From positions 6,982 through 70,981 of the forward strand of contig JAKSVT010000004.1 in the NCBI GenBank assembly GCA_024407875.1: a stretch of 64,000 nt of DNA, given 5' to 3'. This document shows, piece after piece, positions 1,345 to 55,975 of the stretch. Each line of letters starts with the position of its first letter. Position 1 is the first letter of the stretch. The notes under the pieces are model-generated. The model worked only from the letters and a program-made list of their open reading frames with translations. It was not told the origin of the DNA and searched no databases. The translations under genes and the position numbers were made by a program. Source of the stretch: Alphaproteobacteria bacterium. GTDB lineage: Bacteria > Pseudomonadota > Alphaproteobacteria > CAAGCB01 > CAG-977.

Positions 1345-1351
1345 ATAGAGA

Positions 1352-2302: not shown

Positions 2303-2311
2303 CTCTTTAAA

Positions 2312-18536: not shown

Positions 18537-19274
18537 TTAAAAGCATGTAAATGTGTATTGCATTACATTTGATGATGATATGACTTGGGCTTGATTTCCT
18601 TTTTTAGTAATATCATATGATGATTTTGCCTCTTTTATTTCAAAATAGCTAGAATTACATGTTTTTTGCATCATTTTTCTTGCTAATTTTCTATTTATAT
18701 TGCCATCATCTTCACCAAAAATACGAACACGCATTTGATATTCTTGATCTTTTATAGTTTTTATTAGATCAACTCTACCCGATATATTATCTATTTTTTC
18801 TAAAGATGTTTTAGCTCTTTCCCATTTTGATGTTTCTGTTTGTAAATACTCTTGTGAACCTATTTTATCAGATTCTCCAACACATTTAAATCTTACAGCA
18901 ATAGAATATTCATTTACTTTATAAAAATATCTATCTATCCTTGTCTTTCCTGGCAAATCAGATAAATAAGCTTTGAAATTCTGAGCTCCACAAGTTTTCG
19001 TCATAATTTCAAAACCTGTATCCATTGCAGCCTCTATGTATCCGGGAAAAGGAGCAACATTCCCATGTTCATAAGGAGTTAAAACAACCTTCATTATACC
19101 ATCATTGATAGTCTTATTTGCTAAAACATTATAGCCACCAAAATGATACCAATCTTCATCTCCAGTTTCCCAATTATGAATCAATCTATAAGCCATCGGA
19201 TCAGTTTCATTTAATCCTGCACAACCACATAACAAAAAGGCTACTAATGAAAATAATTTAATTCCTTTAAACAT
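18537..19274 (-). CDS. Hypothetical lipoprotein
   Basis: Lipobox 'LLCGCAG'; 245 aa. Confidence 0.45.
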   Translation of the reverse strand: MFKGIKLFSLVAFLLCGCAGLNETDPMAYRLIHNWETGDEDWYHFGGYNVLANKTINDGIMKVVLTPYEHGNVAPFPGYIEAAMDTGFEIMTKTCGAQNFKAYLSDLPGKTRIDRYFYKVNEYSIAVRFKCVGESDKIGSQEYLQTETSKWERAKTSLEKIDNISGRVDLIKTIKDQEYQMRVRIFGEDDGNINRKLARKMMQKTCNSSYFEIKEAKSSYDITKKGNQAQVISSSNVMQYTFTCF

Positions 19275-20374
19275 TTGATTCTATCCTTGATGCTAATGAT
19301 GCTTCTAAAAACAAATCTATATCTCCATCTAATACACCTTTTGTATCTGATGTTTCAGCATTTGTTCTTAAATCTTTTACTAATTGATAAGGACATAAAA
19401 CATATGACCTAATTTGATATCCCCAACCAATGTCTGATTTTGAATCTTCTATTGATTTAATTTTTTCTTCTTTTTTCTTTAATTCAATTTCATAAAGTCT
19501 TGCACGAAGCATTGACCATGCAACATCTTTATTTTGAAATTGAGAACGTTGAGTTTGACAACTTACAACAACACCTGTTGGAATATGTGTGATACGAACA
19601 GCTGATTCAGTTTTATTAACATGTTGTCCACCAGCACCACTTGATCTATATGTATCAATTTTGCAATCAGCAGGATTAATATCAATCTTAATAGAATCAT
19701 CAATTACAGGATATACCCACACAGAACCAAAACTAGTATGTCTTCTAGCATTTGCATCAAATGGGGAAATACGTACTAATCTATGTACTCCTGACTCTGT
19801 TTTCAACCAACCATATGCATTATGACCAGAAATTTTAATAATTGAAGATTTAATACCAGCTTCTTCGCCCTCAGAAGCTTCTAAATATTCAACTTTAAAT
19901 CCATGTTTTTCAGCCCAACGCATATACATACGTAGTAGCATCTCTGACCAATCTTGTGCTTCAGTTCCACCAGCACCAGCATGAATTTCTAAATAAGCAT
20001 CATTCTTATCAGCTTCACCTGATAATAAAGCCTCTAATGTTGCTTTTCTTGCTAATTCTTGTGTTTTTACTAATGACTCTTCAGTTTCTTGAATTATACC
20101 TTCATCACCTTCTGCTTCCCCCATTTCAATAAGTTCAGCAGCATCACTAATATTTTGTTCTATTTTTTTACATGTACTAATAGAGTCTTCTAAAGCTGTT
20201 TTTTCAGCCATCAATTTTTGTGCTTTTTCTGGATTATTCCATAAATTTGCATCTTGGGTTAAAGCGTTAATCTCTTCTAATCTTAAGAGAGCATTATCCC
20301 AGTCAAAGATACCTCCTTAGCAATGCTAATGATTGCTTAATTTCTTCAATTAAATTATATGTTTCAGCTTTCAT
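19267..20374 (-). CDS. prfB: Peptide chain release factor 2, programmed +1 frameshift
   Basis: Frame 0 from ATG at 20374 encodes MKAETYNLIEEIKQSLALLRRYL and ends at the in-frame TGA of 'AGGAGG TAT CTT TGA C' (about 20304–20330). The +1 frame continues DWDNALL...LMAEKTALEDS and carries GGQ and SPF motifs. Confidence 0.85.
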
Positions 20375-24798: not shown

Positions 24799-27081
24799 AT
24801 GTCAAAAAAGATGCTTATCGATGCAAATCACATCGAGGAAAAACGTGTAGTCATTATAGACGGAACGAAAGTTGATGAATTAGATATCGAATCTTCAACA
24901 AAAAAACAAATTAAGTCAAATATCTATTTAGCAAAAGTTGCTCGTATTGAACCTTCATTACAAGCTGCATTTGTTGATTACGGTGGCAACAGACATGGTT
25001 TTTTACCTTTCAATGAAATTCATCCAGATTATTACAAAATTCCTGTTGCTGACAGAGAAGAATTAACACAAATAGTAAATCAAGAATATGAACGTGTTAA
25101 AGAAAGAGATGCTCATGAAGATGATAATTCTGAACAATCTTCAGAAAATAATGGTGGTGATGTAGAAACAGTTTCTTTGAATGAAGCTGATGAGTTTTCT
25201 CATTCACATATTCGTTTAAACAAACGTTATAAAATCCAAGAAGTTATATTCCCTGGGCAAGTATTATTAGTTCAAGTTGTTAAAGAGGAACGTGGAAACA
25301 AAGGCGCTGCTCTTACAACATATTTATCATTGGCTGGTAGATATTGCGTATTAATGCCAAACAATGCAAGAGGCGGTGGTGTCTCAAGAAAGATTACCTC
25401 TGCAGCTGACAGAAAACGCTTGAAAAAAGTTGTAAATAAATTGCCTTTACCAGAAGATATGTCTGTTATCGTAAGAACAGCAGGTAAAGAAAGAACTGCA
25501 TTAGAAATCAAACGCGATTATGACTATTTAATTAAAACTTGGGTACAAATTAGAGATAAAACTATTGTTTCTAATGCTCCAATGTTAATTCATGAAGAAG
25601 GCGATATTATCAAACGTGCTTTACGTGATATGTATACACGTGATATCGAAGAAATCTTAATTGAAGGCGAAGACAATTACAAAGTAGCTAGAGATTTTAT
25701 GAAAGTACTTTCTCCAAGTCATGCTAAAAAAGTTAAGCTTTACAAGGATGAAAAAATTCCATTATTCATTAGATATCAAGTAGAAGCTCAATTAGAAGCC
25801 TTACACTCAAATATCGTACAATTAAAATCCGGTGCATATTTAGTTATGGATCAAACAGAAGCTTTAGTTGCTATCGATGTTAACTCTGGACGTGCTACAA
25901 AAGAACATAACATTGAAGAAACTGCTTTAAAAACAAACTTAGAAGCTGCTGATGAAATTGGAAGACAATTAAGACTTCGTGATATGGCAGGCATTGTTGT
26001 AGTTGACTTCATTGATATGGAAGAAGCAAAGAACAACCACGCATTAGAAAGAAGAATGAAAGAAGCTTTAAGAAAAGACCGCGCTCGTGTCCAAATGAGC
26101 AAAATTACAGGTTTTGGCTTAATGGAAATTTCTCGTCAACGTATGCATTCAAGCTTTATTGAAACATCATATAGCGTATGCCCACACTGTCGCGGCAAGG
26201 GTATGATTAGATCTACACAATCCGCAACAATCCATACATTACATGTTTTGCAAGAAGAAGCTATTACAGGTCAATATAAAGAATTACATATCACTGTTCC
26301 TACAGATACAGCTTTATATGTTTTGAACTATAAACGTGAAAACATTGCCGCATTAGAAAAGGCTTACAACGTTAAAATCTGTGTTGAAGCAGATAATACA
26401 ATGGCATTCCCTGCTGACTTTAGAATGGAACGTGTTTTAAGAAGTCCTGAAGAAATGTTAGCACTTGCAAACAAAGAAGCTGAAGAAGCCGAAGCAGCTA
26501 AGAAAGAAAAAGTTGTTGAAGAAAAAGCTCCTAAAAAACGTGGCAGAAAATCAAAAAAAGATATTGAAACTGAACAAGAAAATTTAGAAAATCAAAATGA
26601 AGAATTAAATATCGAAAAGAATGAAGAAATTTTCGATAATGAAGAACTTCTTAACAATGATGAAAATGAATTCGAAGAAGAAAACAATAATCATCATAAC
26701 AAAAAAGAGAAATTTAAAAAGAAATCTCGTAAACAGAAATTTTCTAAGAAAAAGCATCATGATCAAACAGAAGAATTTGATGAAAATTCTCAAAACGAAG
26801 AGAGTTTTTCTGATGAAAATTCTGAAGAAGAAGTTATTAATGCTGATGAAGTTTTTGAAGAAGGACTTCAAAAAAATAATTATGAAAACTCTAATGATGA
26901 AGAAAATTCTGAAGAATTTAATGAAAATTCTGATGAAGAAAGTGACGATGGCGAAAACCATGAAAATAAGCATCATAGAGGACATAGAGATCGCAGATTT
27001 GGAAGAAATCGTTGGAGAAAGCGTTTTCACCATCATAAAAAACACTTTGAAAACAACGAAAACTCAGAAAATCAAGAATAG
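24799..27081 (+). CDS. rne: Ribonuclease E
   Basis: S1 domain, DNase I-like catalytic core and Zn-link 'CPHCRGKG'. The C-terminal ~200 aa form a K/E/N/H-rich low-complexity tail. A 326-nt 5' leader precedes the gene. Confidence 0.9.
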   Translation: MSKKMLIDANHIEEKRVVIIDGTKVDELDIESSTKKQIKSNIYLAKVARIEPSLQAAFVDYGGNRHGFLPFNEIHPDYYKIPVADREELTQIVNQEYERVKERDAHEDDNSEQSSENNGGDVETVSLNEADEFSHSHIRLNKRYKIQEVIFPGQVLLVQVVKEERGNKGAALTTYLSLAGRYCVLMPNNARGGGVSRKITSAADRKRLKKVVNKLPLPEDMSVIVRTAGKERTALEIKRDYDYLIKTWVQIRDKTIVSNAPMLIHEEGDIIKRALRDMYTRDIEEILIEGEDNYKVARDFMKVLSPSHAKKVKLYKDEKIPLFIRYQVEAQLEALHSNIVQLKSGAYLVMDQTEALVAIDVNSGRATKEHNIEETALKTNLEAADEIGRQLRLRDMAGIVVVDFIDMEEAKNNHALERRMKEALRKDRARVQMSKITGFGLMEISRQRMHSSFIETSYSVCPHCRGKGMIRSTQSATIHTLHVLQEEAITGQYKELHITVPTDTALYVLNYKRENIAALEKAYNVKICVEADNTMAFPADFRMERVLRSPEEMLALANKEAEEAEAAKKEKVVEEKAPKKRGRKSKKDIETEQENLENQNEELNIEKNEEIFDNEELLNNDENEFEEENNNHHNKKEKFKKKSRKQKFSKKKHHDQTEEFDENSQNEESFSDENSEEEVINADEVFEEGLQKNNYENSNDEENSEEFNENSDEESDDGENHENKHHRGHRDRRFGRNRWRKRFHHHKKHFENNENSENQE

Positions 27082-27087
27082 ATAATT

Positions 27088-27115
27088 AAGGCGGAATTAA
27101 ATTCCGCCTTTTTTA
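27088..27115. terminator. Rho-independent terminator (bidirectional, between convergent genes)
   Basis: AAGGCGGAATT/AATTCCGCCTT perfect stem, then TTTTT. Confidence 0.8.
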
Positions 27116-27154: not shown

Positions 27155-28627
27155 TTAGTCTCTTCCAAACAAATCTCTAGTATAAACCTTTTTCTTAACA
27201 TCATCTAATGAAGCATCGTACCTATTTGCTAAAATAGCTTGAGATTTTTTCTTAAACTCATTTAAATCATTAACCACTTTACTGCCAAAGAAAGTTGTTC
27301 CATTAGGTAATGTTGGTTCATAAATAATAACCGTTGCCCCTTTAGCTTTAATACGCTTCATTACACCTTGAATACTGCTTTGACGGAAATTATCTGAATT
27401 ACTCTTCATTGTTAAACGATATACACCAATTACGCATTCTTTTTCATTTTCAGCACTATATTCGTTTTCATTTGCATAACTATAATATCCTGCAATATTT
27501 AAAACCTGATTTGCAATAAAGTCTTTTCTTGTTCTATTACTTTCAACAATAGCTTGAATTAAATTTTCAGGAACATCTTCAAAGTTAGCTAAAAGTTGTT
27601 TTGTATCTTTGGGCAAGCAATAACCACCATAACCAAAACTTGGATTATTATAGTGAGAACCAATTCTAGGATCTAAACAAACGCCTTTAATAATATCTTG
27701 AGTATTTAGTCCCTTCATTTCAGCATAAGTATCTAATTCGTTAAAATAAGATACTCTTAAAGCTAAATAAGTATTTGCAAACAACTTAACAGCTTCTGCC
27801 TCTGTAAAGCTCATAAACAATGTATCGATATTTTGTTTAACAGCACCTTGTTGTAGCAAACTTGCAAAAATATATGCTTTTTCTTTTGTTTTTTCATCGC
27901 AAGAAACAATAATTCTTGAAGGATATAAGTTATCATATAATGCTTTTGATTCACGCAAGAATTCAGGACTAAAAATGATATTTTCAGAATTATATTTCTT
28001 GCGTACGCTTTCTGTATACCCTACTGGAATAGTTGATTTAATAACCATTATAGCTTTAGGGTTTACTTTTAATACTAATTCAATAACAGCTTCAACTGCT
28101 GATGTATCAAAAAAGTTTTTTTGAGCATCATAATTTGTAGGAGCTGCAATAACTACAAAATCAGCATTTTTATAAGCAGCTTCCCCATCTAAAGTTGCTG
28201 TTAAATCTAGATCTTTTTCAGATAAGTATTTTTCAATATATTCGTCTTGAATTGGAGATTTTCTATTATTAATTAAATCAACTTTTTCAGGAACAATATC
28301 TACAGCCATTACGTGATTATGCTGAGCTAATAAAGTTGCAATAGAAAGACCTACATAACCAGTTCCTGCGACAGCTACATTATATTTTTTTAAATTAATC
28401 TCTTCTTTTTTATTTTCTTCTAAAAACAAATCTGTAATATCAAAGCCTAAAACTACTGATAGCTTTTCTAATTGTTCAATTGTTGGAACATAATCCTTTT
28501 TTTCAATTCTACTAATCATAGTTCTATGAATTCCAGTATCTTTAGATAACTGTTCCATAGTAATTTTCTTTGATTTTCTTAATTCATTTACTGTCTGAGA
28601 TAATTTTGAAACTGATAATTTTTTCAT
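27155..28627 (-). CDS. ugd: UDP-glucose 6-dehydrogenase with N-terminal XRE-type HTH extension
   Basis: Residues ~85–490 align with Ugd ('[16 protein letters not shown]', catalytic 'GGYCLPKD'). Residues ~15–75 form an HTH_3-like motif ('[22 protein letters not shown]'). The ORF is continuous from the ATG at 28627. Confidence 0.7.
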
Positions 28628-28711
28628 AACAATCGCCTTTAATGTTATTTTAAATTACATTTTTATAACATTTTACAATTTTTATGTCAATAAGTTATTA
28701 TTTGTGTTATT

Positions 28712-29104
28712 TTAAATCACATTTAATCTATTATCAGCTTTAATCTGAAACTTTTCACTAAATACTATAAATCTTTCATGAATGCCACTAGCTATTCTTG
28801 ATTGATTATCAAAAGCTTCAAATTCAAAAGTTAGCTTTCTTTCCTCTATTTTTACTAACTTTGTTTTACATATTATTTTTCCATTAATTGGAGTTGGCGC
28901 TTCATGATTAAAATTTACAAAAGTTCCAACACTTGTTTGATCCTTTTCTAAAAAATTAGAAATGCTTTTCCATGCTGTTTCCTCAACAAATGCTAAAAGC
29001 ATTGGCGTTGATAAAACATCCAAAGTTCCACTTCCAATATTTCTTGCACTATATTCTTTCTTTACAACGTAATTACTTTCTCCAATTATTCCTACTTCTA
29101 GCAC
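28712..29104 (-). CDS. Hotdog-fold thioesterase-like protein
   Basis: 130 aa; 'GSGTLDVLSTPMLLAFVE' resembles thioesterase-superfamily cores. Confidence 0.4.
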   Translation of the reverse strand: MLEVGIIGESNYVVKKEYSARNIGSGTLDVLSTPMLLAFVEETAWKSISNFLEKDQTSVGTFVNFNHEAPTPINGKIICKTKLVKIEERKLTFEFEAFDNQSRIASGIHERFIVFSEKFQIKADNRLNVI

Positions 29105-42652: not shown

Positions 42653-42728
42653 TGGCGATCCTATCGGGATTCGAACCCGAGTTAACGCCGTGAGAGGGCG
42701 TTGTCCTAGACCACTAGACGATAGGATC
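42653..42728 (-). tRNA. tRNA-Glu (anticodon CUC as read)
   Basis: The reverse complement folds as a cloverleaf: acceptor GATCCTA/TAGGATC, D-arm 'GTCTAGTGGTCTAGGAC', anticodon stem ACGCC/GGCGT with loop CTCTCAC, T-arm GGGTTCGAATCCC, and an encoded CCA. Confidence 0.75.
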
Positions 42729-42740
42729 ATTTTAAACTCA

Positions 42741-42817
42741 TGGTGCACCCGGCGGGATTCGAACCCACGGCCCTCGGCTTCGGAAACCGATACTCTATCC
42801 AGCTGAGCTACGAGTGC
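42741..42817 (-). tRNA. tRNA-Arg (anticodon CCG)
   Basis: Reverse complement: acceptor GCACTCG/CGGGTGC, anticodon loop TTCCGAA, T-arm GTGGGTTCGAATCCCGC, and an encoded CCA. Confidence 0.75.
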
Positions 42818-42954
42818 CAAGCACACTTAGATTTAAAATACTTATTTTTTAACAAAATACAATCAAAAAAGATTATCTTGTTAAAATATTTACAAAAAAA
42901 TCATAAAAAACTCTTGACGAAATACCTAAAACAATATAAATATTCTTTTGTATT

Positions 42955-43029
42955 TGGAGCGTAGCCAAGTGGTAAGGCAAAGGACTTTGACTCCTTCATG
43001 CGCTGGTTCGAATCCAGCCGCTCCAGCCA
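42955..43029 (+). tRNA. tRNA-Gln (anticodon UUG)
   Basis: Acceptor TGGAGCG/CGCTCCA with the U1–A72 pair typical of Gln, anticodon stem AAGGA/TCCTT with loop CTTTGAC, T-arm GCTGGTTCGAATCCAGC, and an encoded CCA. Confidence 0.8.
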
Positions 43030-43038
43030 GAGTCACAA

Positions 43039-43062
43039 AGTCGTCAGAAATGGCGACTTTTT
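43039..43062 (+). terminator. Rho-independent terminator after tRNA-Gln
   Basis: AGTCGTC-agaaatg-GCGACT stem-loop followed by TTTTT. Confidence 0.65.
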
Positions 43063-43342
43063 CTTTTATTTTCAAGCATTTAATCCGGTTCGAAGATGAA
43101 TATATTTTGAAGGCTAGTTTTGCTGTATCTTCGAACTTGCTTCTATATTTTTCAATAACTTAGCTAATTGCAGCCTTTTTTAAGCATAAAAATGAACCTC
43201 TGCTAATTTTTGCAAAGGTTGAACTTCTGACATAGCTATATGAAAGGTTGTTTAGCAATATTGTTAATAAAAACATTTGCATTATTTACTATGTCAAAAT
43301 ATGTCGTAACCTAAATGTATGTTTTATATAGGATGAATATTA

Positions 43343-44253
43343 TGGCATATGAAAAGACTTTTAATTTGTTAGATTTGGCGATTTGGATGCAATCAACTCG
43401 CGAAGGAGTTAGTTTGTCAGATATTATGAGTCGCTTTCAAGTATCAAGAAGAACTGCCGAACGTATGCGAGATATGATATTAAGTCGATTTCCTCAAGTT
43501 GTTGAAGAAATCGGTGAAAATAATTCAAAACGTTGGTATATCCCGCAAGGCACATTAAAAGACTTTATTCAATTTTCGGCTGATGATATTGCTTGTCTTA
43601 ATTTAGCCAAAGATGCCTTAATTAAAGAAAAACTATCTGATAAAGCCGACCAATTAAATGCTATTATTGAAAAAATTACAGCTTCCATTAAGCCAAATAC
43701 TTTATTAAAAATAGAACCTGATGCAGAAGTTTTGTTAGAAGCTCAAGGTTTTGCTCGCCGTGTCGGTCCAAAAATTAAAATTGATACTCAATATTTGGAA
43801 ACAATTAAAGAGGCTATTTTATCTAGCAAAGAACTAAAAATTAAGCATAATAACAAAACTCAAATTGTAGCTCCTTATGGTTTCTTATATGGTAATAAGC
43901 CTTATTTGGTAGCTTATTCCAATAATGCAAAAGAGTTCAGATATTATGCTTTACACAAGTTAAATTCCGTTCAGCTGACAAATAATCATTTTATTAATAC
44001 TTTTTCATTAAACGAATTTACCAAAGATTGTTTTGGCGTTTATAAAGAAAAACCTTTTGAAGTTGAATGGTTATTTAATGCTGATGTAGCTAAAGATGTT
44101 GAAAAATATGAATTTCATCCATCTCAACAAATGATAAAAAATAAAGACGGTACTTTAACCGTAAAGTTTTTCGCAGGTGGTCAAAAAGAAATGGATTGGC
44201 ATCTTTATACCTGGGGTGATAAAGTTAAAGTAATAAAACCAGAAAGGAAATAA
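43343..44253 (+). CDS. HTH–WYL–WCX transcriptional regulator (YafY/BrxR/CapW family)
   Basis: N-terminal winged HTH ('SLSDIMSRFQVSRRTAERMRDMI'), central WYL-like domain ('APYGFLYGNKPYLVAY...RYYALHKL'), and C-terminal WCX with the 'HPSQ' hallmark. Start placed at ATG 43343 with an AGGA RBS. Confidence 0.7.
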
Positions 44254-44255
44254 AA

Positions 44256-44819
44256 ATGACGCAAGAAGAAAATAAATTAAAGTACATTGAGAAAGATACT
44301 AAAATTGTAATTTTAGGAACATTTCCCTCTGAAGCATCAAGAGATACTTTCTTTTATCACAAATCAACCAATCAGTTTTGGACCATATTAAGTAAGCTTT
44401 ATAATTGTAATGATATTTGTCATTTACAAAAGAATGAAACATCTAAAGACAAAGAAGAACAATTAATTGAAAACAGAAAAGCTTTTCTTAAAAAGCACCA
44501 AATTGGTTTATGGGATGTTATTGATAAATGTGACATAGATAAAAGCAAAGATTCCTCTATCAAAAATCCGACTTATAATGATTTAGCTTCATTAAAAACA
44601 GAATGTCCAAAGTTAGAGCACATTTATTTTAGCAGTAAAAAAGCTTTTCAATTTTATCAAAAATATTTGCGAGACAATTTAAAAGATTATGCAAGTAAAA
44701 TTTGGTTAGAAAATGTTGTTATTAAAGAAGCATTACCATCTCCAAGTTCTGCTAATGCTCGTTTGACATTAGAACAAAAGCAAAAAAGATGGGGAGAGTT
44801 GTTAGGCTTATTTAATTAA
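44256..44819 (+). CDS. UDG-superfamily DNA glycosylase-like protein (Mug/TDG-like)
   Basis: Motif A 'ILGTFPSEAS...FFYHKSTNQFW' (compare Mug 'GINPG...FAHPANRFW'). Motif B 'LPSPSSANARL' (compare 'LPNPSGLSR'). Lies 2 nt downstream of the WYL regulator. Confidence 0.5.
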   Translation: MTQEENKLKYIEKDTKIVILGTFPSEASRDTFFYHKSTNQFWTILSKLYNCNDICHLQKNETSKDKEEQLIENRKAFLKKHQIGLWDVIDKCDIDKSKDSSIKNPTYNDLASLKTECPKLEHIYFSSKKAFQFYQKYLRDNLKDYASKIWLENVVIKEALPSPSSANARLTLEQKQKRWGELLGLFN

Positions 44820-44913
44820 AAGCAATCTTCTTCTAAATCGCTAAATTTTCCTATATCTCGGTCAAATAAGCATTTTATCCATCCGCAATTGCCATTATTG
44901 TTTTTAGCGATTA

Positions 44914-45795
44914 TTATTTCACATTTATTTTCTTGTTCTGTTCTAGGCAATCTTCTTGCCATTCTTTATAACGTTTTTCAAAATGCTCTTTTGTTTCTCT
45001 TTTATACTGCTTTGGTTCTTTATCATACATATAATAACTTTCTCTATATAAAAATAAGAGTTTATCAGCATATGGAACGATATTACGATACCCGTCTTTA
45101 ATATCACTATTAATTGGTATTTTACATTGTCTTTGCTCTAGGTTTCGGTTTAGTTGAGAAAGTATAAGTATTGGAACATCTAATTTTTCTGCAATACTTT
45201 TAATATCTTGCATAAATTTTTTATAAGCTTGATTTGACTTATCTTCTGAATAAAGTGATAAAAGTTGCAAACAATCTATAACGACAAGCCCGAATTTATT
45301 TCTATTTGCAAATGCATATATCTTATCTTTTATATCACTAATAGAGCTTATTTGATTGCATAGATATATTGGCAATTGATTTATTTCATTACCGGTAAGT
45401 GCTATTTTTTCAAATTGTTTATAGTTTTCTATGTTGTGTCTTAATTCATATAAAGGAATTCCGGAAGCTAAACTAACAAACCGTTGCATTATATTCTTAT
45501 TATTGCATTCAAAATCAAAATATAAAACGTGTTTTATTTCTGAATTGTTTTGTTCTGCTTCTTCTTTGAATTTTTGTGCCACCTGATAAACACAGTTTAT
45601 TGCAAATGCCGTTTTTCCCATTGCAGGTCGTCCCGCTATAAGAACAACATCACCACCTCGAATATATCCTAGTCTTTCATCTAATCTATCTATACCTGTT
45701 GACAATCCGAGAGGCTCACTGTTCATTTGATAACGATATTCAACTTCTTTAATATATTCAAGAAATGCATCAGATATATGTAATGTTTTATCCAT
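44914..45795 (-). CDS. DnaB-family replicative helicase, C-terminal (RecA-like) domain only
   Basis: 'GLSTGIDRLDERLGYIRGGDVVLIAGRPAMGKTAF' (Walker A), 'VIDCLQLL' and 'ILSQLNRNLEQR...NSDIKDGYRNIVPYADKLLFLYRE'. The N-terminal DnaB domain is absent. Confidence 0.65.
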   Translation of the reverse strand: MDKTLHISDAFLEYIKEVEYRYQMNSEPLGLSTGIDRLDERLGYIRGGDVVLIAGRPAMGKTAFAINCVYQVAQKFKEEAEQNNSEIKHVLYFDFECNNKNIMQRFVSLASGIPLYELRHNIENYKQFEKIALTGNEINQLPIYLCNQISSISDIKDKIYAFANRNKFGLVVIDCLQLLSLYSEDKSNQAYKKFMQDIKSIAEKLDVPILILSQLNRNLEQRQCKIPINSDIKDGYRNIVPYADKLLFLYRESYYMYDKEPKQYKRETKEHFEKRYKEWQEDCLEQNKKINVK

Positions 45796-46032
45796 TTTAA
45801 TACTCCATACTAGTTTTTGTTGTATGGATATTAAACTAAAGATACGCCATATTTTGACAGATACAAATATACCAATATTGCAGATAGGTGAAATTAGTTA
45901 AAGAACAGGTTTTATTAGCAAACTAACATATTGTCATTAATAGTGGTAGGTTATAATTTACTTTTCTTAATGAAACATATATCAAAATCTAAATAGCTTA
46001 TATGGGGCGAAAGTACAATTTTCTATTTTACT

Positions 46033-46878
46033 TTATTTATCGCTAGTATTCTGATTAAGTATCGATTCAAAGAATCTATCAAATTCAAAAATTTCTTCTG
46101 CTTTCACAATTACACCAATATTGATAGGGAAACTGGTTACTGGCCTTGGAATACACGGGATGTAATCAAATTTTAAAATTCCTTCAGCATTGTATTCAAG
46201 CCCCCCATACAAAACTCCAACAAATTTAATATTATTACCTAAATATGCACCACTTTTATCAGTATACAATCCTTCGTTTAAAACAAACACAGGAGAACCA
46301 CTGCATCCGTGAAAACTTGCAATATCAATTAAAAATTCTTTTTTCCCATTGTAATTATTTTTAATATGCGTAGCAGTAATACCTTTACGAATAATTGGTT
46401 TGTGATTATATACATCTGAAAATCCTATCGGATATCCAACCATAACAATATTTTCAATAGCTGTCATGTTTTCTATTTCTTCTTGCGAAGGAATTAAACT
46501 CATATCCAATGGAATGTAAAAGGTGTGAATACCTTGTTTTATCACATTATCAAGTGCATCTGTTATTGGTAAGCAACATAAATCTACCGATAAACTTGGA
46601 TGTTCTATCCAAGGACACCCATCATATGTAAATGGAGCTGTTTTTGTATTACAGATATTTCCATCTGCATCGCATGTACATAACTCAAATTGTGTCATTA
46701 CACTATTCTTTACTACGTGTTTATTTGTAATAACGGCGGCTATATATTTACTATTATCTTTACTATTAAAATGGACAATAAAACCCGTACCTAAACTAAC
46801 TTTATGATTTTTATCAGTGCATTTAAGCAGCACAGTAGAATAAGTAATTTTTTCTGATAAACTCATTTGTTCAATCAT
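46033..46878 (-). CDS. Trypsin-like (S1/chymotrypsin-fold) serine protease, no signal peptide
   Basis: 'GTGFIV...AVITNKHVV' (His), 'HGCSGSPVFV' (Ser nucleophile); 281 aa. Confidence 0.5.
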   Translation of the reverse strand: MIEQMSLSEKITYSTVLLKCTDKNHKVSLGTGFIVHFNSKDNSKYIAAVITNKHVVKNSVMTQFELCTCDADGNICNTKTAPFTYDGCPWIEHPSLSVDLCCLPITDALDNVIKQGIHTFYIPLDMSLIPSQEEIENMTAIENIVMVGYPIGFSDVYNHKPIIRKGITATHIKNNYNGKKEFLIDIASFHGCSGSPVFVLNEGLYTDKSGAYLGNNIKFVGVLYGGLEYNAEGILKFDYIPCIPRPVTSFPINIGVIVKAEEIFEFDRFFESILNQNTSDK

Positions 46879-47030
46879 TTTTTATCTTTCAGAAAGGCTA
46901 ATTACAACATTATATATTTAGGGTTTTATTTCTCAAAACGCAAGTATTTTATTGATTTGAAAATCTATCTCGGGTTCCTAACACCCCGAAGTTAAAAACA
47001 ATTAAAATTTTAGCTCGAGAATTGCGAATT

Positions 47031-47080
47031 CACTCCAGCCAGACTTAACAGGTCGTCTTTAAAGACGGCCTTTTGCTTTA
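47031..47080 (+). repeat. Second copy of the tRNA-Gln 3'-end repeat plus hairpin (internal att-like junction)
   Basis: 'CACTCCAGCCAGA', then AGGTCGTCTTT-aa-AGACGGCCT hairpin and TTTTG. Confidence 0.55.
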
Positions 47081-47306
47081 TTTACAAGGCTTTCGGCTGG
47101 TCCGTGTGGTTAGCATCAAAAAACAGCCTTCCCGACAATTTACACGGACCAGTTATAGCAAGTTTCTTTATTTTTCAATCATTTATGAAATTTCATCTCT
47201 CTAAATATGCAATAACGCGATTTCGGGAGAAGATGGACTTCATTTACTTGAGGGAAAGATGTTGTTAATTTATTTAATTGATATTATTTTTAAAATATCC
47301 GTCAAT

Positions 47307-48605
47307 TTAGTTTTTTCCATAATTATCAAGTTTGATTTTGTTACGTATATTTTCATTATCAATATTTTCTACATATTTAATTACATTATCTGGTGCACCA
47401 TAATCACTTGCCATTTTACCTTTTTCAGTGTAAGCATTATATTCAAATTTTGATAATAATCTATCAAATCCCGTTACATCATCAATTTCGCATTTTAAAG
47501 TCTGAGATATCCTATATTTATAGATTAGATTGAATATCCCTAAATATTTTACAAGGTGATATTTAAGTTTATTATAGATAAAATCGGCTGTCGTTCTTAT
47601 AGCTCTATCATAATCCAGATTTTTCTTCTCTATATAATATTTAACTTCGCCATAAAATCCTGCTTTAAGATAACAACTTACCATATAAACAAGAACAGAG
47701 AACTCTTTACCTTCGTAAGTGGAAGTCTTATTATTGATTAATGAGTATATCGGCGAATCTTTTGCAATATCTTTTATTGTGTTCAGAAATATTTGGAAGC
47801 CATCAAAATTTATAGAATCGTACATAGTAGAATTTACACAATTTTCAATTTTAGCTAATTCCTCAGATGTTAATCCCATAATTTTATGAAATAGCGAAAC
47901 CTTATTTTGCTTTGAGATTGTCTTAAATTGAGTAAGTATGATACCAGGAAGTAAAGACGACAATCTATTTATTTCTTTTTTTCTTTCTAAATCTTGTTCC
48001 GATAAGTAATTATCTCTTGTATAATCTAGATCTATATCAGTTTTTGCAGACGTTTTATCATAATTTTTATGCTCTAAAATGGCGTCGTTTGCATATAACA
48101 CATCCATAAAATTATTTTGCAGAACAATAACTCTTCCTGAATAATGATGAAGAAATCTACCAGCACGACCCGCAATATTTTTTGCATCAAATGGTTTTAA
48201 TGGTTTAGGAGACTTTTTACATAGCGTTACAAGAATATTTTTTGCAGAGGTGTTTACTCCTTCCGTTATGGTTGTAGTTGTTGTTAAAACTTGTAATTCT
48301 CCTTGATTAAAAAATTTAATAATTTCTTTTTGAATATATTTTGGAACCAAGCCATTGTGTATACCCACACCTTTTTTCAGGGCTTTATATAATAACCAAT
48401 CTTCTGAAAATGTACTCTTTATATGTTCTAAAAATAATGCGTATTGACTATCATAATCGTGAAGCTCTGGTAAAATATCTAATAAATATTTGGCATAAGA
48501 CCTTGTTCCTTTTTTATCAGCACAATAGACAATACATTTTTCCCCATTATTAAGTAAGGTTTTTATAATTGATATAAATTTATCTGTTTTATTATTCTTA
48601 CACAT
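47307..48605 (-). pseudogene. SF2 helicase C-terminal fragment (RecA2 domain plus C-terminal extension); N-terminal ATPase domain missing
   Basis: Motifs IV–VI 'LTTTTTITEGVNTSAKNILV' and 'AGRAGR', but no Walker A/DEAD anywhere upstream. Only 75 bp separate it from the divergent neighbour. Confidence 0.5.
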
Positions 48606-48680
48606 TTTTTAACTGTAAGATTACCACAACATTGGGAAACTACTAATTTAAATCATGCAATAGGAAGATTAAGACTTATT

Positions 48681-49055
48681 ATGAAGGTATTTGAAAGATG
48701 TCTTATTAAAAATCATTGGAACAAACATCATTTACCTTTTATTGCTACTTCTGAAACAGGTGATGGTATATATTGGCATTTTCATATATTGTTTAATCAA
48801 GATAAATATACAGATGATATGTTAAATAATGCTATAAAGAAGACTATTAAATCTATAAGAGGTATGTCTGATTACTGCTTAAAATTAAAACATATTGAAG
48901 AAGATAATATAAAAACATTTGTAAAAGCTGTTAATGATACTGATTTTTATTGTTTAAAGGAGATAAAAGTTAATAGATATGGTAAATTTGACGGTGAAAG
49001 GATAATATTTTCTGATGATTTATTCAACTTGCCATATCAAAGCATATCCCATTGA
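48681..49055 (+). CDS. Hypothetical protein (124 aa) with an HUH-like 'WHFHILF' motif
   Basis: ORF only; 'HLPFIAT' followed by 'HFH' resembles HUH-endonuclease motifs, but this is speculative. Confidence 0.3.
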   Translation: MKVFERCLIKNHWNKHHLPFIATSETGDGIYWHFHILFNQDKYTDDMLNNAIKKTIKSIRGMSDYCLKLKHIEEDNIKTFVKAVNDTDFYCLKEIKVNRYGKFDGERIIFSDDLFNLPYQSISH

Positions 49056-49057
49056 GT

Positions 49058-49150
49058 CATAAACAACCCATAAACAGCCGGATTCATTTTTTATAACTAA
49101 ACCTATACCAAAAAGTAGAATTGAATCATATGGTCAAAAATAGACTTTAT
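49058..49150 (+). repeat. Direct repeat copy 1 (~93 bp), upstream of fic
   Basis: About 75% identical to 50368–50460; shared blocks 'ATAAACAACC', 'ATTCATTTTTTATAA' and 'GGTCAAAAA-T-GACTTT'. Confidence 0.6.
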
Positions 49151-49262
49151 CTCAACTATATAAAAATTACCTTATAATCAAAAAATCGTTAGTTAATCAT
49201 ATTTTATTATTGATTTATTCATAATTTAATCATAAAATAATCATAAATTATAGGAGTAAATC

Positions 49263-50348
49263 ATGACTTTTTTACCAAAATATACCATTACCAAAGATAT
49301 TTTAGCTGATTTAACTAAGATTGAAGCTGTTAAAAATTCGTTTGATGATAAACCTTTGTCACCGGTTTTGTTATCTTCGCTGCATAAAACTGCCAAAATT
49401 GCACAAAGTCACTACTCTACGCAAATTGAAGGTAATCATTTATCATTAAAACAAGTAGAAACGACGCTTTATTCTGCCAACAAATCGATTAAAGAATATC
49501 AAGGTCATGACGAAAAAGAAGTCAAAGCTTATTACAATGCTATCAATTATATGGAAAAAGTTCTTGAAAATGGTGGAGAATTTGATGAAAAGCTGGTGCA
49601 AAAAATCCATTCACTAATTGAAGGCAGTAAAAAAATTATTCCATATCGTAATGAACAAAATGCAATATACGACACATCTGACGGCTCACTTGTCTATCTG
49701 CCACCGGAAACTAAAGATGTTCCTGTTATGATGAAAGATTTGGTTGCTTGGGTAAATGATAACATTGATAAATTGCCAACACCTATTGTAGCAGGTTTAT
49801 TTCATTATCAGTTTGTGACTATCCATCCTTATTTTGACGGTAATGGTAGAACAGCACGCTTGATGACAAGTTATATTATGCGTAAATTCGGTTATGGCTT
49901 AAAAGGTATTTATTCTTTGGAAGAGTATTATGCTAAAAATCTCAAAGATTATTATCAAGCACTGGCAACACATCCGCATCACAACTATTATTTTGGCCGG
50001 AACGTTGCTGATTTAACTCCTTGGCTTGAATATTTTATTAAAGGTGTGGCGACAGCATTTGAAAATATCAATATTAAAGCACAAGAACAGCAGAACACAG
50101 GTATTAAAACGGATATATCACCAATGTTGCGTAAACTGGATATTAAACAACGCAAAATTTTAGAATTATTTGTGGAGTTTGATCAAATAACCTCAAATCA
50201 AGCAGGTGAATATTTGAATTTATCATCACAATCAGCCAGACTTTTATTAAACAGATGGGTAGAAGAAGGATTTTTAATAATAGCAAATAAAGCGCGTAAA
50301 AACAGAACTTATGGTTTAGCACAAGAATATGAACAGCTGATATCATAA
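49263..50348 (+). CDS. Fic-family protein (AMPylase-type) with C-terminal winged HTH
   Basis: Canonical Fic motif 'HPYFDGNGRTARL'; 361 aa. Confidence 0.8.
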   Translation: MTFLPKYTITKDILADLTKIEAVKNSFDDKPLSPVLLSSLHKTAKIAQSHYSTQIEGNHLSLKQVETTLYSANKSIKEYQGHDEKEVKAYYNAINYMEKVLENGGEFDEKLVQKIHSLIEGSKKIIPYRNEQNAIYDTSDGSLVYLPPETKDVPVMMKDLVAWVNDNIDKLPTPIVAGLFHYQFVTIHPYFDGNGRTARLMTSYIMRKFGYGLKGIYSLEEYYAKNLKDYYQALATHPHHNYYFGRNVADLTPWLEYFIKGVATAFENINIKAQEQQNTGIKTDISPMLRKLDIKQRKILELFVEFDQITSNQAGEYLNLSSQSARLLLNRWVEEGFLIIANKARKNRTYGLAQEYEQLIS

Positions 50349-50367
50349 TAAAGCGCTCTCCATTGCT

Positions 50368-50460
50368 CTATAAACAACCTAGAAACAAGCTATTCATTTT
50401 TTATAAGTAAACTTATATCAAACAGGTAAAAGGTTGCTATAGGTCAAAAAATGGACTTTC
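50368..50460 (+). repeat. Direct repeat copy 2 (~93 bp), downstream of fic
   Basis: See copy 1. Confidence 0.6.
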
Positions 50461-50507
50461 TTACCAAATGGAAAAGAAGTTTATATTAAAGATACGGTAT
50501 CAAAAAA

Positions 50508-50580
50508 GGGCCCTATACAATCAAGATTCATTTCTACTGGTTAGTTTATAGTCAAAAATAAATCTATGCGTATAGGGCCC
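50508..50580. repeat. Inverted repeat, 11-bp perfect arms GGGCCCTATAC/GTATAGGGCCC with a 51-nt spacer
   Basis: Read directly. Lies immediately upstream of the recombinase remnant and is GC-rich in an AT-rich context. Confidence 0.6.
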
Positions 50581-50728
50581 CAAAACAAGCTTTAGTGTTT
50601 GTGTTTAGTTAATTAGTTGGCACCTTCCAATTTGATGTTGCAATCTGATAAAAACTCAGCAAATCTTCTTAAAGGAAAACCTGATTTTAAGCAAAGATTC
50701 TCGCGGTATTGATATTCTTTTCTGGAAT

Positions 50729-51757
50729 ATGTGCGTTTTAATGGCTAACAGTTATATTTTAAGCCTGTCTGACAATGTTCGCCGTAGTCTTGAATATAAC
50801 TGGAGCCAAGGCAAATGGCAGAGTTTGGCACCTATCGGATATCTCAATCAAAAAGATAAACATGGCAAATCCATTATAGTGATTGATGAAGAACGAGCAC
50901 CTATTATCAAGCGTTTGTTTGAAGAATATGCTACCGGTCTGCATACCGCACAAAGTTTATTGATTTTGGCTTGTAAATTAGGACTTACCGCTAAAGAAAC
51001 TTATTCAGAAGAGACACCTCAAAGAAAAAGATTTATCAGCCGTACCAAGATTTATGAAATTCTGCGTAATCCTTTTTATGCCGGAATTATGTGTGTCAAA
51101 GGAAAATTGATGCCACATATCCACGGCAAAATTATTGATAAAAAACTTTATGACCAAGTGCAGCAAATTATGGATGCTAAAGGTATGGAAAGAGAAATAC
51201 ATAAACATCAGCAAAAATACAAGGTTAAAAAGTTTGCATTTCGTGGAATTGTTTTGTGTGGCAGATGTCATCACTTAATGTCTCCGGATTGCAAAACCAA
51301 GACAAACGGCAAGCAATATACTTATTTAAGATGTTACAACAAATGCGGTCAAATGCCGATTAATGAAACCATATTGCTTAAACAGCTTGAAACAGAAGTA
51401 TTTGCTAAATTTTTCATACCACCGCAAGATTTTAATAAGATAAAACAATCTCTTATCAATCATTATAAACGACCATCACATGCAAAAACAGAGCTTTTGA
51501 ATAAACTGGTTAACCTGATTTGCAATATGCCAACCATTATGCAACAAGCAGATGCCGGCACCAAAAATGAAATATTGGTTATTCTGCTTCAAAATTTCAC
51601 CTTAAATGAGCAAACACTCTCTTATTCTCTTCGCTCGCCGTTTGATAAGCTGATTGAGACAGATTATCACAATTGGAAAGATATTATTATACATAATTTC
51701 AAAGACTTATCGTCGATTGGATATAATCTTAAAGCCATCAACTTAAAGGAGGATTAA
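50729..51757 (+). pseudogene. Large serine recombinase remnant lacking the N-terminal catalytic (resolvase) domain
   Basis: Paralog of 52169..53353, starting at the equivalent 'M.VLMA.NY..SLS.NV.RSL..NW..GKWQ' point. Has recombinase domain and Zn ribbon ('CGRCHHLM...LRCYNKCG'), but no 'ARVSS' catalytic domain upstream. Confidence 0.55.
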
Positions 51758-51760
51758 ACT

Positions 51761-52165
51761 ATGCGTAAAAAATACCAGAAGAAACTCATTGAAAAGTGTA
51801 CCGAAGCCATAACATTTGCGCGTGTTTCTAGCGAAAAACAGGAACGTGGCGCTTCTATTGATGCTCAAAAAGAATTGATCTACGATTATTGTATGGAGAA
51901 AAATTTCAAAATCATTAAAGAGTTTGAAATTACCGAGAGTACAACTCGCGGCGATCGTGTAAAATATAATGAAATGCTTGATTTTATTCGTTCTCGCAAC
52001 AAAAAGACCGCTATTGTTGTAAACTGCGTTGATAGACTTCAAAGAAGTGATGAAGATAATCCGGCACTTAATAAACTGCGCCGAGAAGGCAAAATTGAAA
52101 TACACTTTATGAAAGAGCATATTATCTTAGATGAAACTTCTCCGGTACAAGATATTTTTGCATAG
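51761..52165 (+). CDS. Serine recombinase N-terminal catalytic domain (ends at an in-frame TAG)
   Basis: 'ITFARVSSEKQ' (catalytic Ser) and 'VVNCVDRLQRS'. The ORF ends 'DIFA*' at TAG 52163–52165, in frame with the next ORF. Confidence 0.6.
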   Translation: MRKKYQKKLIEKCTEAITFARVSSEKQERGASIDAQKELIYDYCMEKNFKIIKEFEITESTTRGDRVKYNEMLDFIRSRNKKTAIVVNCVDRLQRSDEDNPALNKLRREGKIEIHFMKEHIILDETSPVQDIFA

Positions 52166-52168
52166 AAA

Positions 52169-53353
52169 ATGAATGTGCTAATGGCTGGCAACTACACGGA
52201 TTCATTATCATATAACGTAAAAAGAAGTTTGGTTAAAAACTGGAATTCTGGTAAATGGCAAGGCATGGCACCTCTCGGATATTTAAATCGCCATACAGAT
52301 GATGACAACAACGAAGCCATTATTATTGTTGATCCTGTTCGCGGACCGATTATCAAGCATTTATTTGAAGAATTTGCAACCGGTAAACATACTTTGAAAA
52401 CATTGTGGTATTTATCCAAAGAATTAGGTTTATATACCAAAAATAAAAAGAAAAAAGGCTGCTTTGTGAGCAGAAACACGCTTTATGATGTTCTGACCAA
52501 TCCGTTTTATCATGGTTTGATGTGTATCAAAGGCGAGTTTTACAATCATATTTATGAGCCGCTGATAAGCAAAGAATTATTTGACCGTGTACAAGCCATT
52601 TTGACCGGAAACGGCAATCATAATCGCAATAACACCACAGAATATGCCAAAACACCTTACATTTTCCGCGGTTTGATACATTGTAAAGAATGCGGTTGTT
52701 TGATTACGCCGGAAAAGAAAATCAAAAAGAACGGTAGCACGTATATTTATTTGCGTTGCGGTCATCCTTGTAAAGAATGTCATCAAGGAATAGTTAACGA
52801 AAATGTGATTATTGAGCAGCTGAAAAAGGAAGTTATGGATAAAATATCATTACCGCCGAAATTGCAGGAAATCGTCAAAGAAAAACTAACTCAAGAATTA
52901 AATGATACATCGGCTTTTAATAAGACTATGAAAACCAATATCACGAATAAACTGAACGAATTGAAAGTTAAAGAAGACAATTTACTTGATTTCTACCTGG
53001 AAGGAAAGCTGCCACAAGCAACTTATGAAGCCAAACAAGAACAGATTGCCAATCAGCGAGCTGAACTTGAGCAGACAGCCGAAAAATACAAAAATATTGA
53101 TGCCGATATGAAGAAAAGAGTTGTGCAGGTTATGGCTTTGGCAAATAATATCTCTAAGTTGTTTGATATGGCAACTCCAACCAGAAGAAACGAGTTATTA
53201 CAATTACTTATTTCAAACTGTCAACTTAATGATTCAAAATTAGAATATACCGTAAACGCACCATTTAACTGGTTAATGGATAGCAATAATTATACCGAAT
53301 GGACCACCGTCGTCATTGAGCATTTAGATGACTTTGAATGCGTGAAGGTGTAA
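52169..53353 (+). CDS. Large serine recombinase C-terminal portion (recombinase domain, Zn ribbon, coiled coil)
   Basis: Same frame as 51761..52165, separated by TAG+AAA. 'CKECGCLITP...LRCGHPCKEC' ribbon and a C-terminal coiled coil. Confidence 0.6.
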   Translation: MNVLMAGNYTDSLSYNVKRSLVKNWNSGKWQGMAPLGYLNRHTDDDNNEAIIIVDPVRGPIIKHLFEEFATGKHTLKTLWYLSKELGLYTKNKKKKGCFVSRNTLYDVLTNPFYHGLMCIKGEFYNHIYEPLISKELFDRVQAILTGNGNHNRNNTTEYAKTPYIFRGLIHCKECGCLITPEKKIKKNGSTYIYLRCGHPCKECHQGIVNENVIIEQLKKEVMDKISLPPKLQEIVKEKLTQELNDTSAFNKTMKTNITNKLNELKVKEDNLLDFYLEGKLPQATYEAKQEQIANQRAELEQTAEKYKNIDADMKKRVVQVMALANNISKLFDMATPTRRNELLQLLISNCQLNDSKLEYTVNAPFNWLMDSNNYTEWTTVVIEHLDDFECVKV

Positions 53354-53434
53354 GGATTATAATGGATGATATTTTAATAATATTGCAGATTTTATTTAAT
53401 TTATCATATACAATCACCGTAAATATCCAGGAGA

Positions 53435-55858: not shown

Positions 55859-55896
55859 AAATTTTATTCTTCTATCATAGTCCGTGTATTGCAAGC

Positions 55897-55942
55897 TCAC
55901 TCCAGCCAAATTTTAAAGTCGTCAGAAATGGCAACTTTTTTT
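55897..55942 (+). repeat. Third copy of the tRNA-Gln 3'-end repeat plus (degenerate) hairpin; right boundary of island
   Basis: 'CACTCCAGCCAAA', then AAGTCGTCAGAAATGGCAACT (one G-to-A change relative to the tRNA-proximal hairpin) and T7. Confidence 0.55.
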
Positions 55943-55975
55943 ATAATCAATATTGATATTTTGAAAGTTTAAAAT

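Follow-up and report, generated by a model that had tools for sequence, protein, structure and literature searches.

A UDP-glucose 6-dehydrogenase carrying a helix-turn-helix domain and predicted operators at its own promoter: a probable self-limiting cassette in an alphaproteobacterium

The regulatory methyltransferases M.SsoII, M.Ecl18kI and M.EcoRII bear an N-terminal helix-turn-helix (HTH) domain on a flexible linker and auto-repress their own promoter (PMC12707154), and the trigger enzymes PutA, BirA, NadR and the archaeal RbkR combine a metabolic enzyme with a DNA-binding domain and act through palindromic sites as repressors of the pathway to which they belong (PMC5397151). In the MocR/GabR regulators an N-terminal HTH is joined to a large, aminotransferase-like domain that dimerises (PMC5320631). 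No nucleotide-sugar enzyme is among the trigger enzymes named in PMC5397151. Here we describe a gene, HTH-ugd, in which an XRE-type HTH precedes a UDP-glucose 6-dehydrogenase (Ugd), found in a stretch of 64,000 nucleotides (64 kb; hereafter the window) of contig JAKSVT010000004.1 of Alphaproteobacteria bacterium (assembly GCA_024407875.1). Judged from sequence comparisons, its product is probably a bifunctional enzyme and repressor that acts on two operators, O1 and O2, at its own promoter, the whole forming a portable, self-limiting cassette that was transferred into an alphaproteobacterium; taken alone, the proposal that HTH-Ugd switches off its own gene is very probable.

The gene occupies 27155..28627 on the minus strand as one open reading frame (ORF) of 490 aa plus stop, from an ATG at 28627 to a stop codon at 27155-27157, and is delimited by the ORF list, by Pfam and NCBIfam models and by full-length homologues, which in a protein database search reached 78-83% identity at 100% coverage. 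An identical protein is present at NCBI as 'MAG: nucleotide sugar dehydrogenase [Alphaproteobacteria bacterium]' (P0002). The sequence-only reading of this stretch had proposed a single polypeptide, and the HTH peptide and the Rossmann motif on which it relied both lie in this frame. The XRE/Cro-C1-type HTH spans aa 15-67 (28427..28585, minus strand; Pfam HTH_3, PF01381, E 4e-12, 46.3 bits against a cutoff of 23), and HTH_19 and HTH_26 likewise exceed their cutoffs on the N-terminus. A polar inter-domain linker of 12-15 aa (about aa 71-82; 28382..28417, minus strand), variable in length and sequence among homologues (alignment A1), leads to the dehydrogenase core of aa 83-490 (27158..28381, minus strand), recognised by Pfam, NCBIfam and Protein Data Bank (PDB) matches and by a GTGYVG Rossmann motif. 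The core shows the three-domain architecture of nucleotide-sugar 6-dehydrogenases, i.e., an NAD-binding Rossmann domain (UDPG_MGDP_dh_N, PF03721, aa 83-250, 109 bits), a central helical domain (PF00984, aa 276-365, 97 bits) and a C-terminal UDP-binding domain (PF03720, aa 401-478, 45.8 bits), each above its gathering score. It scores 308.5 bits against the nucleotide-sugar dehydrogenase subfamily TIGR03026 (NCBIfam cutoff 189.8) and 569.6 bits against PRK15057, the E. coli-type Ugd (aa 84-490, model positions 3-388), which is under the equivalog cutoff of 757 and makes it a close subfamily relative, with a likely specificity for UDP-glucose.

Compared with the PDB, the core aligns end to end with Klebsiella Ugd (3PHL, E 1.8e-154) and with S. 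pyogenes HasB (1DLI, E 1.7e-146), as it does with E. coli Ugd; the catalytic motifs are identical (GGYCLPKD and KLFANTY in 3PHL), whereas these enzymes have no DNA-binding domain. An insertion of about 17 residues relative to the solved Ugds (aa ~378-394) is common to unfused close relatives. The catalytic residues K281/N285, C337 (codon 27617-27619) and D341 are all present and are invariant in 12 fused homologues (alignment A1); in the S. pyogenes and Klebsiella structures the Cys in GGxCxPKD is the nucleophile, and the Asp four residues on and the Lys and Asn in KLFANTY are catalytic as well. In MocR the enzyme-like domain serves as a sensor and catalysis is largely lost. HTH-Ugd resembles MocR and GabR in that an HTH is joined to a large enzyme-fold domain, but differs in having kept every catalytic residue, which argues that it is still an enzyme and not a MocR-like pseudo-enzyme sensor. 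With a catalytic and a nucleic-acid-binding domain in one polypeptide it has the structure of a trigger enzyme. The solved sequences nearest to its HTH are those of the restriction-modification (R-M) controller protein (C-protein) C.BclI (2B5A, E 6e-5) and of SinR (1B0N/3QQ6), both dimeric operator binders that autoregulate, and of C.Esp1396I (3CLC). An AlphaFold2 run on the 12-sequence alignment A1 reached a mean predicted local distance difference test score (pLDDT) of 60, with the core mostly below 70, and only the HTH and the linker are usable: pLDDT is about 86-93 for aa 11-60, helices are placed at aa 6-19, 24-31, 35-42 and 50-60, and values below 50 at aa 68-78 indicate a disordered linker.

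The two domains could in principle be separate products of an internal start, a frameshift or an assembly artefact, with no bifunctional polypeptide made, and the start of unfused relatives, MK(I)AVAGTGYVG, does fall only a few residues before the start of the core here. We regard this as extremely improbable. In-frame ATG, GTG or TTG codons occur among the first 110 codons at positions 1, 24, 37, 67 and 107 only, so that no plausible separate start precedes the dehydrogenase core; the sequence-only reading had noted that an ATG is lacking there, and the observation extends to GTG and TTG. Codon 67 is a TTG inside the last HTH helix (helix 5) without a preceding purine-rich or Shine-Dalgarno-like stretch, and codons 38-106 hold no in-frame start codon combined with such a stretch. 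Moreover, at least 72 species keep the frame uninterrupted, although the linker varies and GC content at third codon positions (GC3) runs from 0.16 to 0.90, and the window gene sits in a contig of matching GC3.

The fusion itself, which the sequence-only reading had called unusual, is one of a large family spread through gut Bacillota and plasmids; what is unusual is the host, not the protein. A scan of GTDB, one genome per species, with the HTH signature TGI[NH]R[ATG][ML]I[GS]R gave 158 confirmed matches, of which the best 80 loci were analysed. HTH and catalytic-Cys motif lie in one ORF of ~489-507 aa (outliers 353-588) in 72 of these 80, the same single-ORF fusion as here; five of the other eight end at a contig edge after the Rossmann motif, two are stand-alone HTH proteins of 118-119 aa and one was left unassigned. 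Over its full length the query is matched, at 78-83% identity, by more than 100 proteins of 491-493 aa, each with HTH_3 and Ugd domains; their named sources are Blautia, Mediterraneibacter gnavus and Eubacterium. The hosts of the best 80 loci are nearly all Bacillota (Lachnospiraceae, Anaerococcus, Bulleidia, Dysosmobacter), the exceptions being a Treponemataceae bin (L049) and a Bifidobacterium catenulatum bin (L052), the latter near-identical to Coprococcus aceti L035 and probably a bin contamination. In L049 the linker comprises 53 residues, and the operators are found 299 and 406 bp upstream. Plasmid copies occur in Enterococcus faecalis, E. hirae and Butyrivibrio fibrisolvens, annotated merely as 'nucleotide sugar dehydrogenase'; a search of a phage collection found no fused copy, and neither an HTH-UDP-glucose dehydrogenase fusion nor its operator was found described in full-text searches of the literature. 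Gut Firmicutes commonly carry the fusion, its function unrecognised, and the window holds an out-of-phylum member.

Mean identity to the window protein is 58% for the HTH and 82% for the core, and linker length ranges from 14 to 53 residues (75 homologues). GC3 of the fused genes tracks the host, from 0.16 to 0.90 (window gene 0.143), and the recognition-helix residues T31, G32, I33, R35, R40 and E42 are invariant (alignments A1 and A2). That the frame stays open despite synonymous turnover, together with these invariant residues, indicates a translated and selected two-domain protein. Since close unfused relatives exist (~78-81% core identity, with the MK(I)AVAGTGYVG start mentioned above), the HTH is an add-on inside one Ugd clade. 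Typical representatives of E. coli-type Ugd were unfused in a search of 50%-identity representatives, a search poorly suited to counting fusions, as long, odd proteins seemingly stand for the query cluster and fragments make up most rows. Two family members deserve mention. P0171, a divergent fused homologue of 480 aa with 49% identity that came up in this search, shows CPPED in place of CLPKD and a deletion past the catalytic Cys, and may be drifting to a non-catalytic, purely regulatory role. P0001 (L088, 4001-5923) is an unfused close relative of 640 aa in which the first ~250 residues are internally duplicated in tandem, and its gene directly follows a HamA plus helicase (Hachiman-like) pair.

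The control region of HTH-ugd (all features on the minus strand) is compact. A Shine-Dalgarno-like AAAGG (28636..28640), recognised by eye, lies 8 nt ahead of the ATG at a place where homologues have GGAG or AGGAG. A sigma-70-type promoter (28662..28690), likewise identified by eye, consists of a -35 TTGACA (28690-28685), a 17-nt spacer and a TGn-extended -10 TATAAA (28667-28662), and homologues show TTGACA and TATAAT-like boxes in the same arrangement; an automated promoter scan, the rule of which demands a T at position 6 of the -10, did not list the TTGACA/TATAAA pair. The sequence-only reading had suggested looking for a palindromic operator in 28628-28711. Such a site, O1, a 21-bp imperfect palindrome AATGTAATTTAAAATAACATT, is located by pattern and position weight matrix (PWM) at 28641..28661, between the -10 and the ribosome-binding site (RBS), and spans the expected transcription start. 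A second copy, O2 (AATGTGATTTAAAATAACACA, 28703..28723; pattern and PWM), lies just 5' of the -35 and overlaps the stop codon of an upstream ORF for a FlK-type thioesterase. The centres of O1 and O2 are 62 bp apart, i.e., 5.9 helical turns. The pattern ATGTNATTTNAAATNACAT is matched by O1 without mismatch (28642-28660) and by O2 with one (28704-28722); allowing up to one mismatch, these are the 2 matches in 64 kb, against 0.01 expected, and both fall within 100 bp 5' of the ATG. A palindromic PWM trained on other species only gave 22.6 bits for O1, 14.6 for O2 and 11.7 for the next site of the window, and a site identical to O1 is present in L067. A repeat search of the window did not report the operator pair, nor did it report an 8-bp inverted repeat seen by eye, AATGTTAT(N16)ATAACATT, which was dropped for the comparison-supported 21-bp palindromes. 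At the other end of the gene, a hairpin with a 10-bp stem (5 GC pairs; 27088..27110, both strands) forms a bidirectional intrinsic terminator common to the convergent rne and HTH-ugd, so that the whole unit of O2, promoter, O1, RBS, gene and terminator measures ~1.6 kb.

The upstream regions of fused genes, aligned by eye, share a conserved 21-bp palindrome, approximately aATGTtATTTAAAAtaACATt, usually with one copy just 5' of the RBS and another upstream of the -35. Operator scans covered 83 related loci (+/-4 kb each, 603 kb) in addition to the window. Among sites of at least 15 bits in the 83 loci, 82 of 87 were within 260 bp upstream of the fused gene, corresponding to 3.8 per kb upstream versus 0.009 per kb elsewhere, and all five of the remaining sites lie further upstream of an HTH-ugd gene, two of them displaced in L009 by the insertion of an insertion sequence (IS). 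The insertion in L009 (1660-4000; Ruminococcus sp. 5_1_39BFAA) is a 592-aa transposase-like ORF that parts operators and promoter from HTH-ugd by ~2.2 kb. At a threshold of 11 bits, 77 of the 83 loci had at least one site within 320 nt upstream of the start and 38 had at least two. Total information of the motif is 21.2 bits, against 6-7 bits for PWMs obtained by the same training from random regions of the same loci. The sites fall into two position classes, one with its centre ~20-42 nt before the ATG (between -10 and RBS) and another mostly at ~100-190 nt (at or upstream of the -35), and the spacings between sites cluster at 116, 105, 94, 63 and 52 bp; 37 of 44 spacings differ from a whole number of 10.5-bp turns by no more than a quarter turn, which, as the loci are related, is suggestive rather than a clean statistic. 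The predicted operator is a conserved palindrome that co-occurs with the HTH and is placed at the promoter.

A function at the RNA level is conceivable for the proximal palindrome, since many loci have it 3' of the -10, where it is probably transcribed; it might then act as a hairpin of the 5' untranslated region on stability or translation, not as a protein operator. This we consider most unlikely. Transcription does not include the distal copy, positioned upstream of the -35, many sites are asymmetric in a way that would break a stem (e.g., AATGTTATTTAAAACTGGTTT), and the predicted fold of the 5' region in the window is weak (-5.3 kcal/mol, z -1.8). Since that fold leaves the palindrome unused and no Rfam match was found, the hairpin reading of O1 was rejected.

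It could also be argued that the palindromes are bound by another factor, or belong to promoter or mobile-element architecture, the HTH being vestigial or a module for protein interaction. The lower conservation of the HTH relative to the core is compatible with that, and operator binding by HTH-Ugd is a prediction. Several observations nevertheless make it quite improbable. The motif co-occurs with the HTH, being found upstream in 77 of 83 fused or related loci versus none of six close unfused genes. The latter (with 79-86% identity to the window protein in the first ~85 residues of the core, P0001 being 81% identical overall) have no upstream site of at least 10 bits, a lone 10.6-bit site in L091 lying downstream of the start, and those that are annotated lie in co-directional polysaccharide gene clusters. 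Two stand-alone HTH relatives (L068 and L085) have the same motif ahead of their own genes, the recognition-helix residues are invariant, and the sites are kept in hosts of three labelled phyla, for which a common trans-acting factor is unlikely. Variants of the recognition helix accompany variants of the half-site, e.g., ...NRAMIGRIENKDY.PTVEQ with AATTCTG...CAGAATT, and this co-variation suggests direct recognition, although it is confounded by phylogeny.

Another alternative is that HTH-Ugd is a wider regulator of capsule, exopolysaccharide or other loci, with autoregulation as a side feature. In Lachnospiraceae, Enterococcus and Butyrivibrio the gene does adjoin polysaccharide clusters (Wzz, CpsB, Wzy, flippase, CpsD kinase). 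Against such a role, which appears unlikely though less so than the alternatives above, no site of at least 15 bits lies ahead of any other gene within +/-4 kb in the 83 loci, no third site of the window exceeds the 11.7 bits given above, and the window gene, with a FlK-type thioesterase (PF22636) and RNase E as neighbours and nhaA nearby, is not close to a polysaccharide locus.

We return to autorepression by a bifunctional HTH-Ugd. In the mechanism that we propose, the C-terminal 408 residues would work as a UDP-glucose 6-dehydrogenase and supply UDP-glucuronate for glycans, and the N-terminal XRE-type HTH on its flexible linker would bind O1 and O2, which bracket the gene's own sigma-70 promoter. 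The small XRE domains of C-proteins and SinR form dimers on palindromes, C-proteins bind two neighbouring palindromes as dimers and thereby autoregulate, and bacterial Ugd of the E. coli type is dimeric. With HTH-HTH and Ugd-Ugd interfaces in one polypeptide, each palindrome might be occupied by a pair of HTH domains, in the manner of C-proteins and SinR, and the two sites connected through the dimeric dehydrogenase bodies; at high protein level the promoter would be occluded or looped and transcription repressed. Repression is the sign suggested by the position of O1 over or downstream of the start site. The outcome would be a compact, monocistronic, self-limiting ugd cassette independent of host regulators, and such independence would fit the spread of the gene among gut Bacillota, on plasmids and into an alphaproteobacterium. 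Gene calls or annotation cover 8 distinct contexts, in all of which the gene downstream of HTH-ugd is on the opposite strand; so is the upstream neighbour, except for a distant, co-directional IS6 transposase in L089. The sequence-only reading had suggested an enzyme that autoregulates or moonlights as a repressor; the conserved operators, not found upstream of six close unfused ugd genes, speak for the autoregulation, and that its sign is repressive is what we infer from their placement.

Several points weigh against this interpretation. DNA binding by the HTH, the sign of regulation, oligomeric bridging, enzyme activity and modulation by UDP-sugars or NAD(H) are all deduced from sequence, and the AlphaFold2 model is too poor for inter-domain or dimer geometry, so that the reach of two N-termini onto one palindrome cannot be assessed from it. 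In six of the 83 loci no site reaches 11 bits. The upstream regions in which matches of the PWM are counted also served to train it, a partial circularity that is only partly offset by the density outside these regions, the random-region control and the scan that excluded the window from training. The loci are phylogenetically related, which means that counts, spacing phases and the co-variation of HTH and operator are not independent observations, and the scans were local, so additional operator targets may exist elsewhere in the genomes.

By analogy, the regulatory methyltransferases are the closest mechanistic precedent that we found for HTH-Ugd. As in M.SsoII, M.Ecl18kI and M.EcoRII, which are active enzymes, a linker-joined HTH is located at the N-terminus, and an operator, predicted in the case of HTH-Ugd, lies in the enzyme's own promoter region; the methyltransferase systems, too, are carried by mobile gene cassettes (PMC12707154). 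Unlike the M.SsoII group, in which the enzyme is a DNA methyltransferase of an R-M system and the divergent endonuclease promoter is adjusted through the operator as well, HTH-Ugd contains a nucleotide-sugar dehydrogenase and controls no partner gene. PutA, BirA, NadR and RbkR share with it the combination of a metabolic enzyme and a DNA-binding domain, and often repress their own gene too (PMC5397151); however, PutA has a ribbon-helix-helix and BirA and RbkR a winged HTH, as opposed to the XRE fold of HTH-Ugd, and those enzymes belong to amino-acid and cofactor pathways with a demonstrated substrate or co-repressor switch, whereas an effector of HTH-Ugd would be hypothetical. C-proteins and SinR, the closest solved sequences of the HTH, are stand-alone proteins of ~80-110 aa, and the likeness is at the domain level only; no R-M genes occur within +/-8 kb of HTH-ugd and no sin genes adjoin it. 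The Ugd of E. coli, Klebsiella and S. pyogenes is under the control of host regulators, and that of E. coli and B. subtilis is also subject to tyrosine phosphorylation.

It is doubtful, but possible, that the dehydrogenase body itself acts as a sensor, such that occupancy by UDP-glucose, by UDP-glucuronate or UDP-xylose, or by NAD(H) alters the bridging of O1 and O2 by the HTH domains. If this were true, ugd transcription would be set directly by the nucleotide-sugar or redox state, and HTH-Ugd would be, to our knowledge, the first trigger enzyme of nucleotide-sugar or glycan metabolism. It would then represent a host-independent, 'plug-and-play' homeostatic cassette, the self-sufficiency of which would explain its spread over plasmids and phyla.

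The stand-alone HTH relatives give a hint on the origin of the fused domain. In L068 (3983-5225) and L085 (3980-5222) they comprise 118-119 aa from the aligned MK.LS start (longest ORFs 124-126 aa) and overlap a downstream ORF of ~295 aa with a HELYHY (HExxH) motif, ImmA/IrrE-like. Because the only stand-alone relatives found are paired with such a protease, the fused HTH may have been recruited from the repressor of a mobile-element immunity (ImmR/ImmA-like) system. The likeness to ImmR/ImmA extends to the operator motif carried by these two relatives; the fused genes, on the other hand, have no ImmA-like gene, no HExxH protease lies beside HTH-ugd in the window, and in HTH-Ugd the dehydrogenase takes the place of the C-terminal part of an ImmR-type repressor.

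As to the host, the genes that flank HTH-ugd in the window (BamB, PBP1A, AmiC, RNase E, ATP12) are those of a diderm alphaproteobacterium. The best named relatives of Der and NhaA are found only in metagenome-assembled genomes (MAGs) of Alphaproteobacteria, with at most 72% and 77% identity, respectively (NhaA also has a 96% match on a 1.8-kb contig), and HTH-Ugd is 78-83% identical to proteins whose named members are Bacillota. The contig of the closest relative (L096), reached by way of NhaA, keeps TK, oadGAB, two tetratricopeptide repeat (TPR)-methyltransferases and nhaA, followed by the genes gap and pgk where the window has the thioesterase, HTH-ugd and rne, and it is thus without the cassette. 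The GC3 of HTH-ugd (0.143) equals that of its neighbours (0.14-0.22), and the gene is therefore resident and ameliorated and no assembly chimera. This pattern is most simply read as the horizontal acquisition of a self-regulating cassette. A metagenome scan with the neighbouring thioesterase yielded one 41%-identical relative with no ugd nearby and is uninformative on synteny.

Other features of the window are recorded here. A cluster at 520-3139, 25 kb from ugd, encodes YdjC-like, GT2 glycosyltransferase and DUF4422 proteins and possibly comprises glycan-modification genes. Two tandem paralogues combining TPR and class-I methyltransferase domains lie between nhaA and oadA/oadB, the genes of the Na+-pumping oxaloacetate decarboxylase (window 30490-36571; L096 597-8224), and, as the arrangement is kept in the nearest relative MAG, it suggests a Na+-based energy module. 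Three tRNA genes (Glu-CTC, Arg-CCG, Gln-TTG; 42653-43029) precede an apparent integrated mobile or defence island (42653-56422 with the tRNA genes), which has genes for a WYL-domain protein (43315-44253), a UDG-superfamily protein, a DnaB_C-like helicase (44914-45795), a Fic protein (49263-50348), three adjacent serine-recombinase ORFs (50729-53353), an 807-aa AAA_13 ATPase (53435-55858) and a GNAT protein. The prfB ORF (19267-20214, minus strand) has a TTG start and aligns only from model position 47, which fits the usual programmed +1 frameshift, the N-terminal part being encoded upstream in another frame. The long C-terminal tail of RNase E (26400-27085), of low complexity and rich in E, N, K and H, yields two spurious overlapping ORFs (26605-27045, minus strand; 26621-27085, plus strand).

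UDP-glucuronate supplies capsules, exopolysaccharides and other surface glycans, and for Mediterraneibacter gnavus, Blautia and other gut commensals, as well as where Enterococcus plasmids are concerned, such glycans shape the interaction with the host. A large ugd family, annotated only as 'nucleotide sugar dehydrogenase', appears to bring along its own repressor and operators; if this is true, the expression of glycan precursors in these bacteria would have to be read differently, and a case from carbohydrate metabolism would join the short list of enzyme-repressor fusions. The gene would also provide a compact negative-feedback module (~1.6 kb, with a defined 21-bp operator), apparently independent of the host, that is testable and could be reused in synthetic biology. 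In the window, a Bacillota-type cassette of this kind is resident in an uncultured, low-GC alphaproteobacterium.

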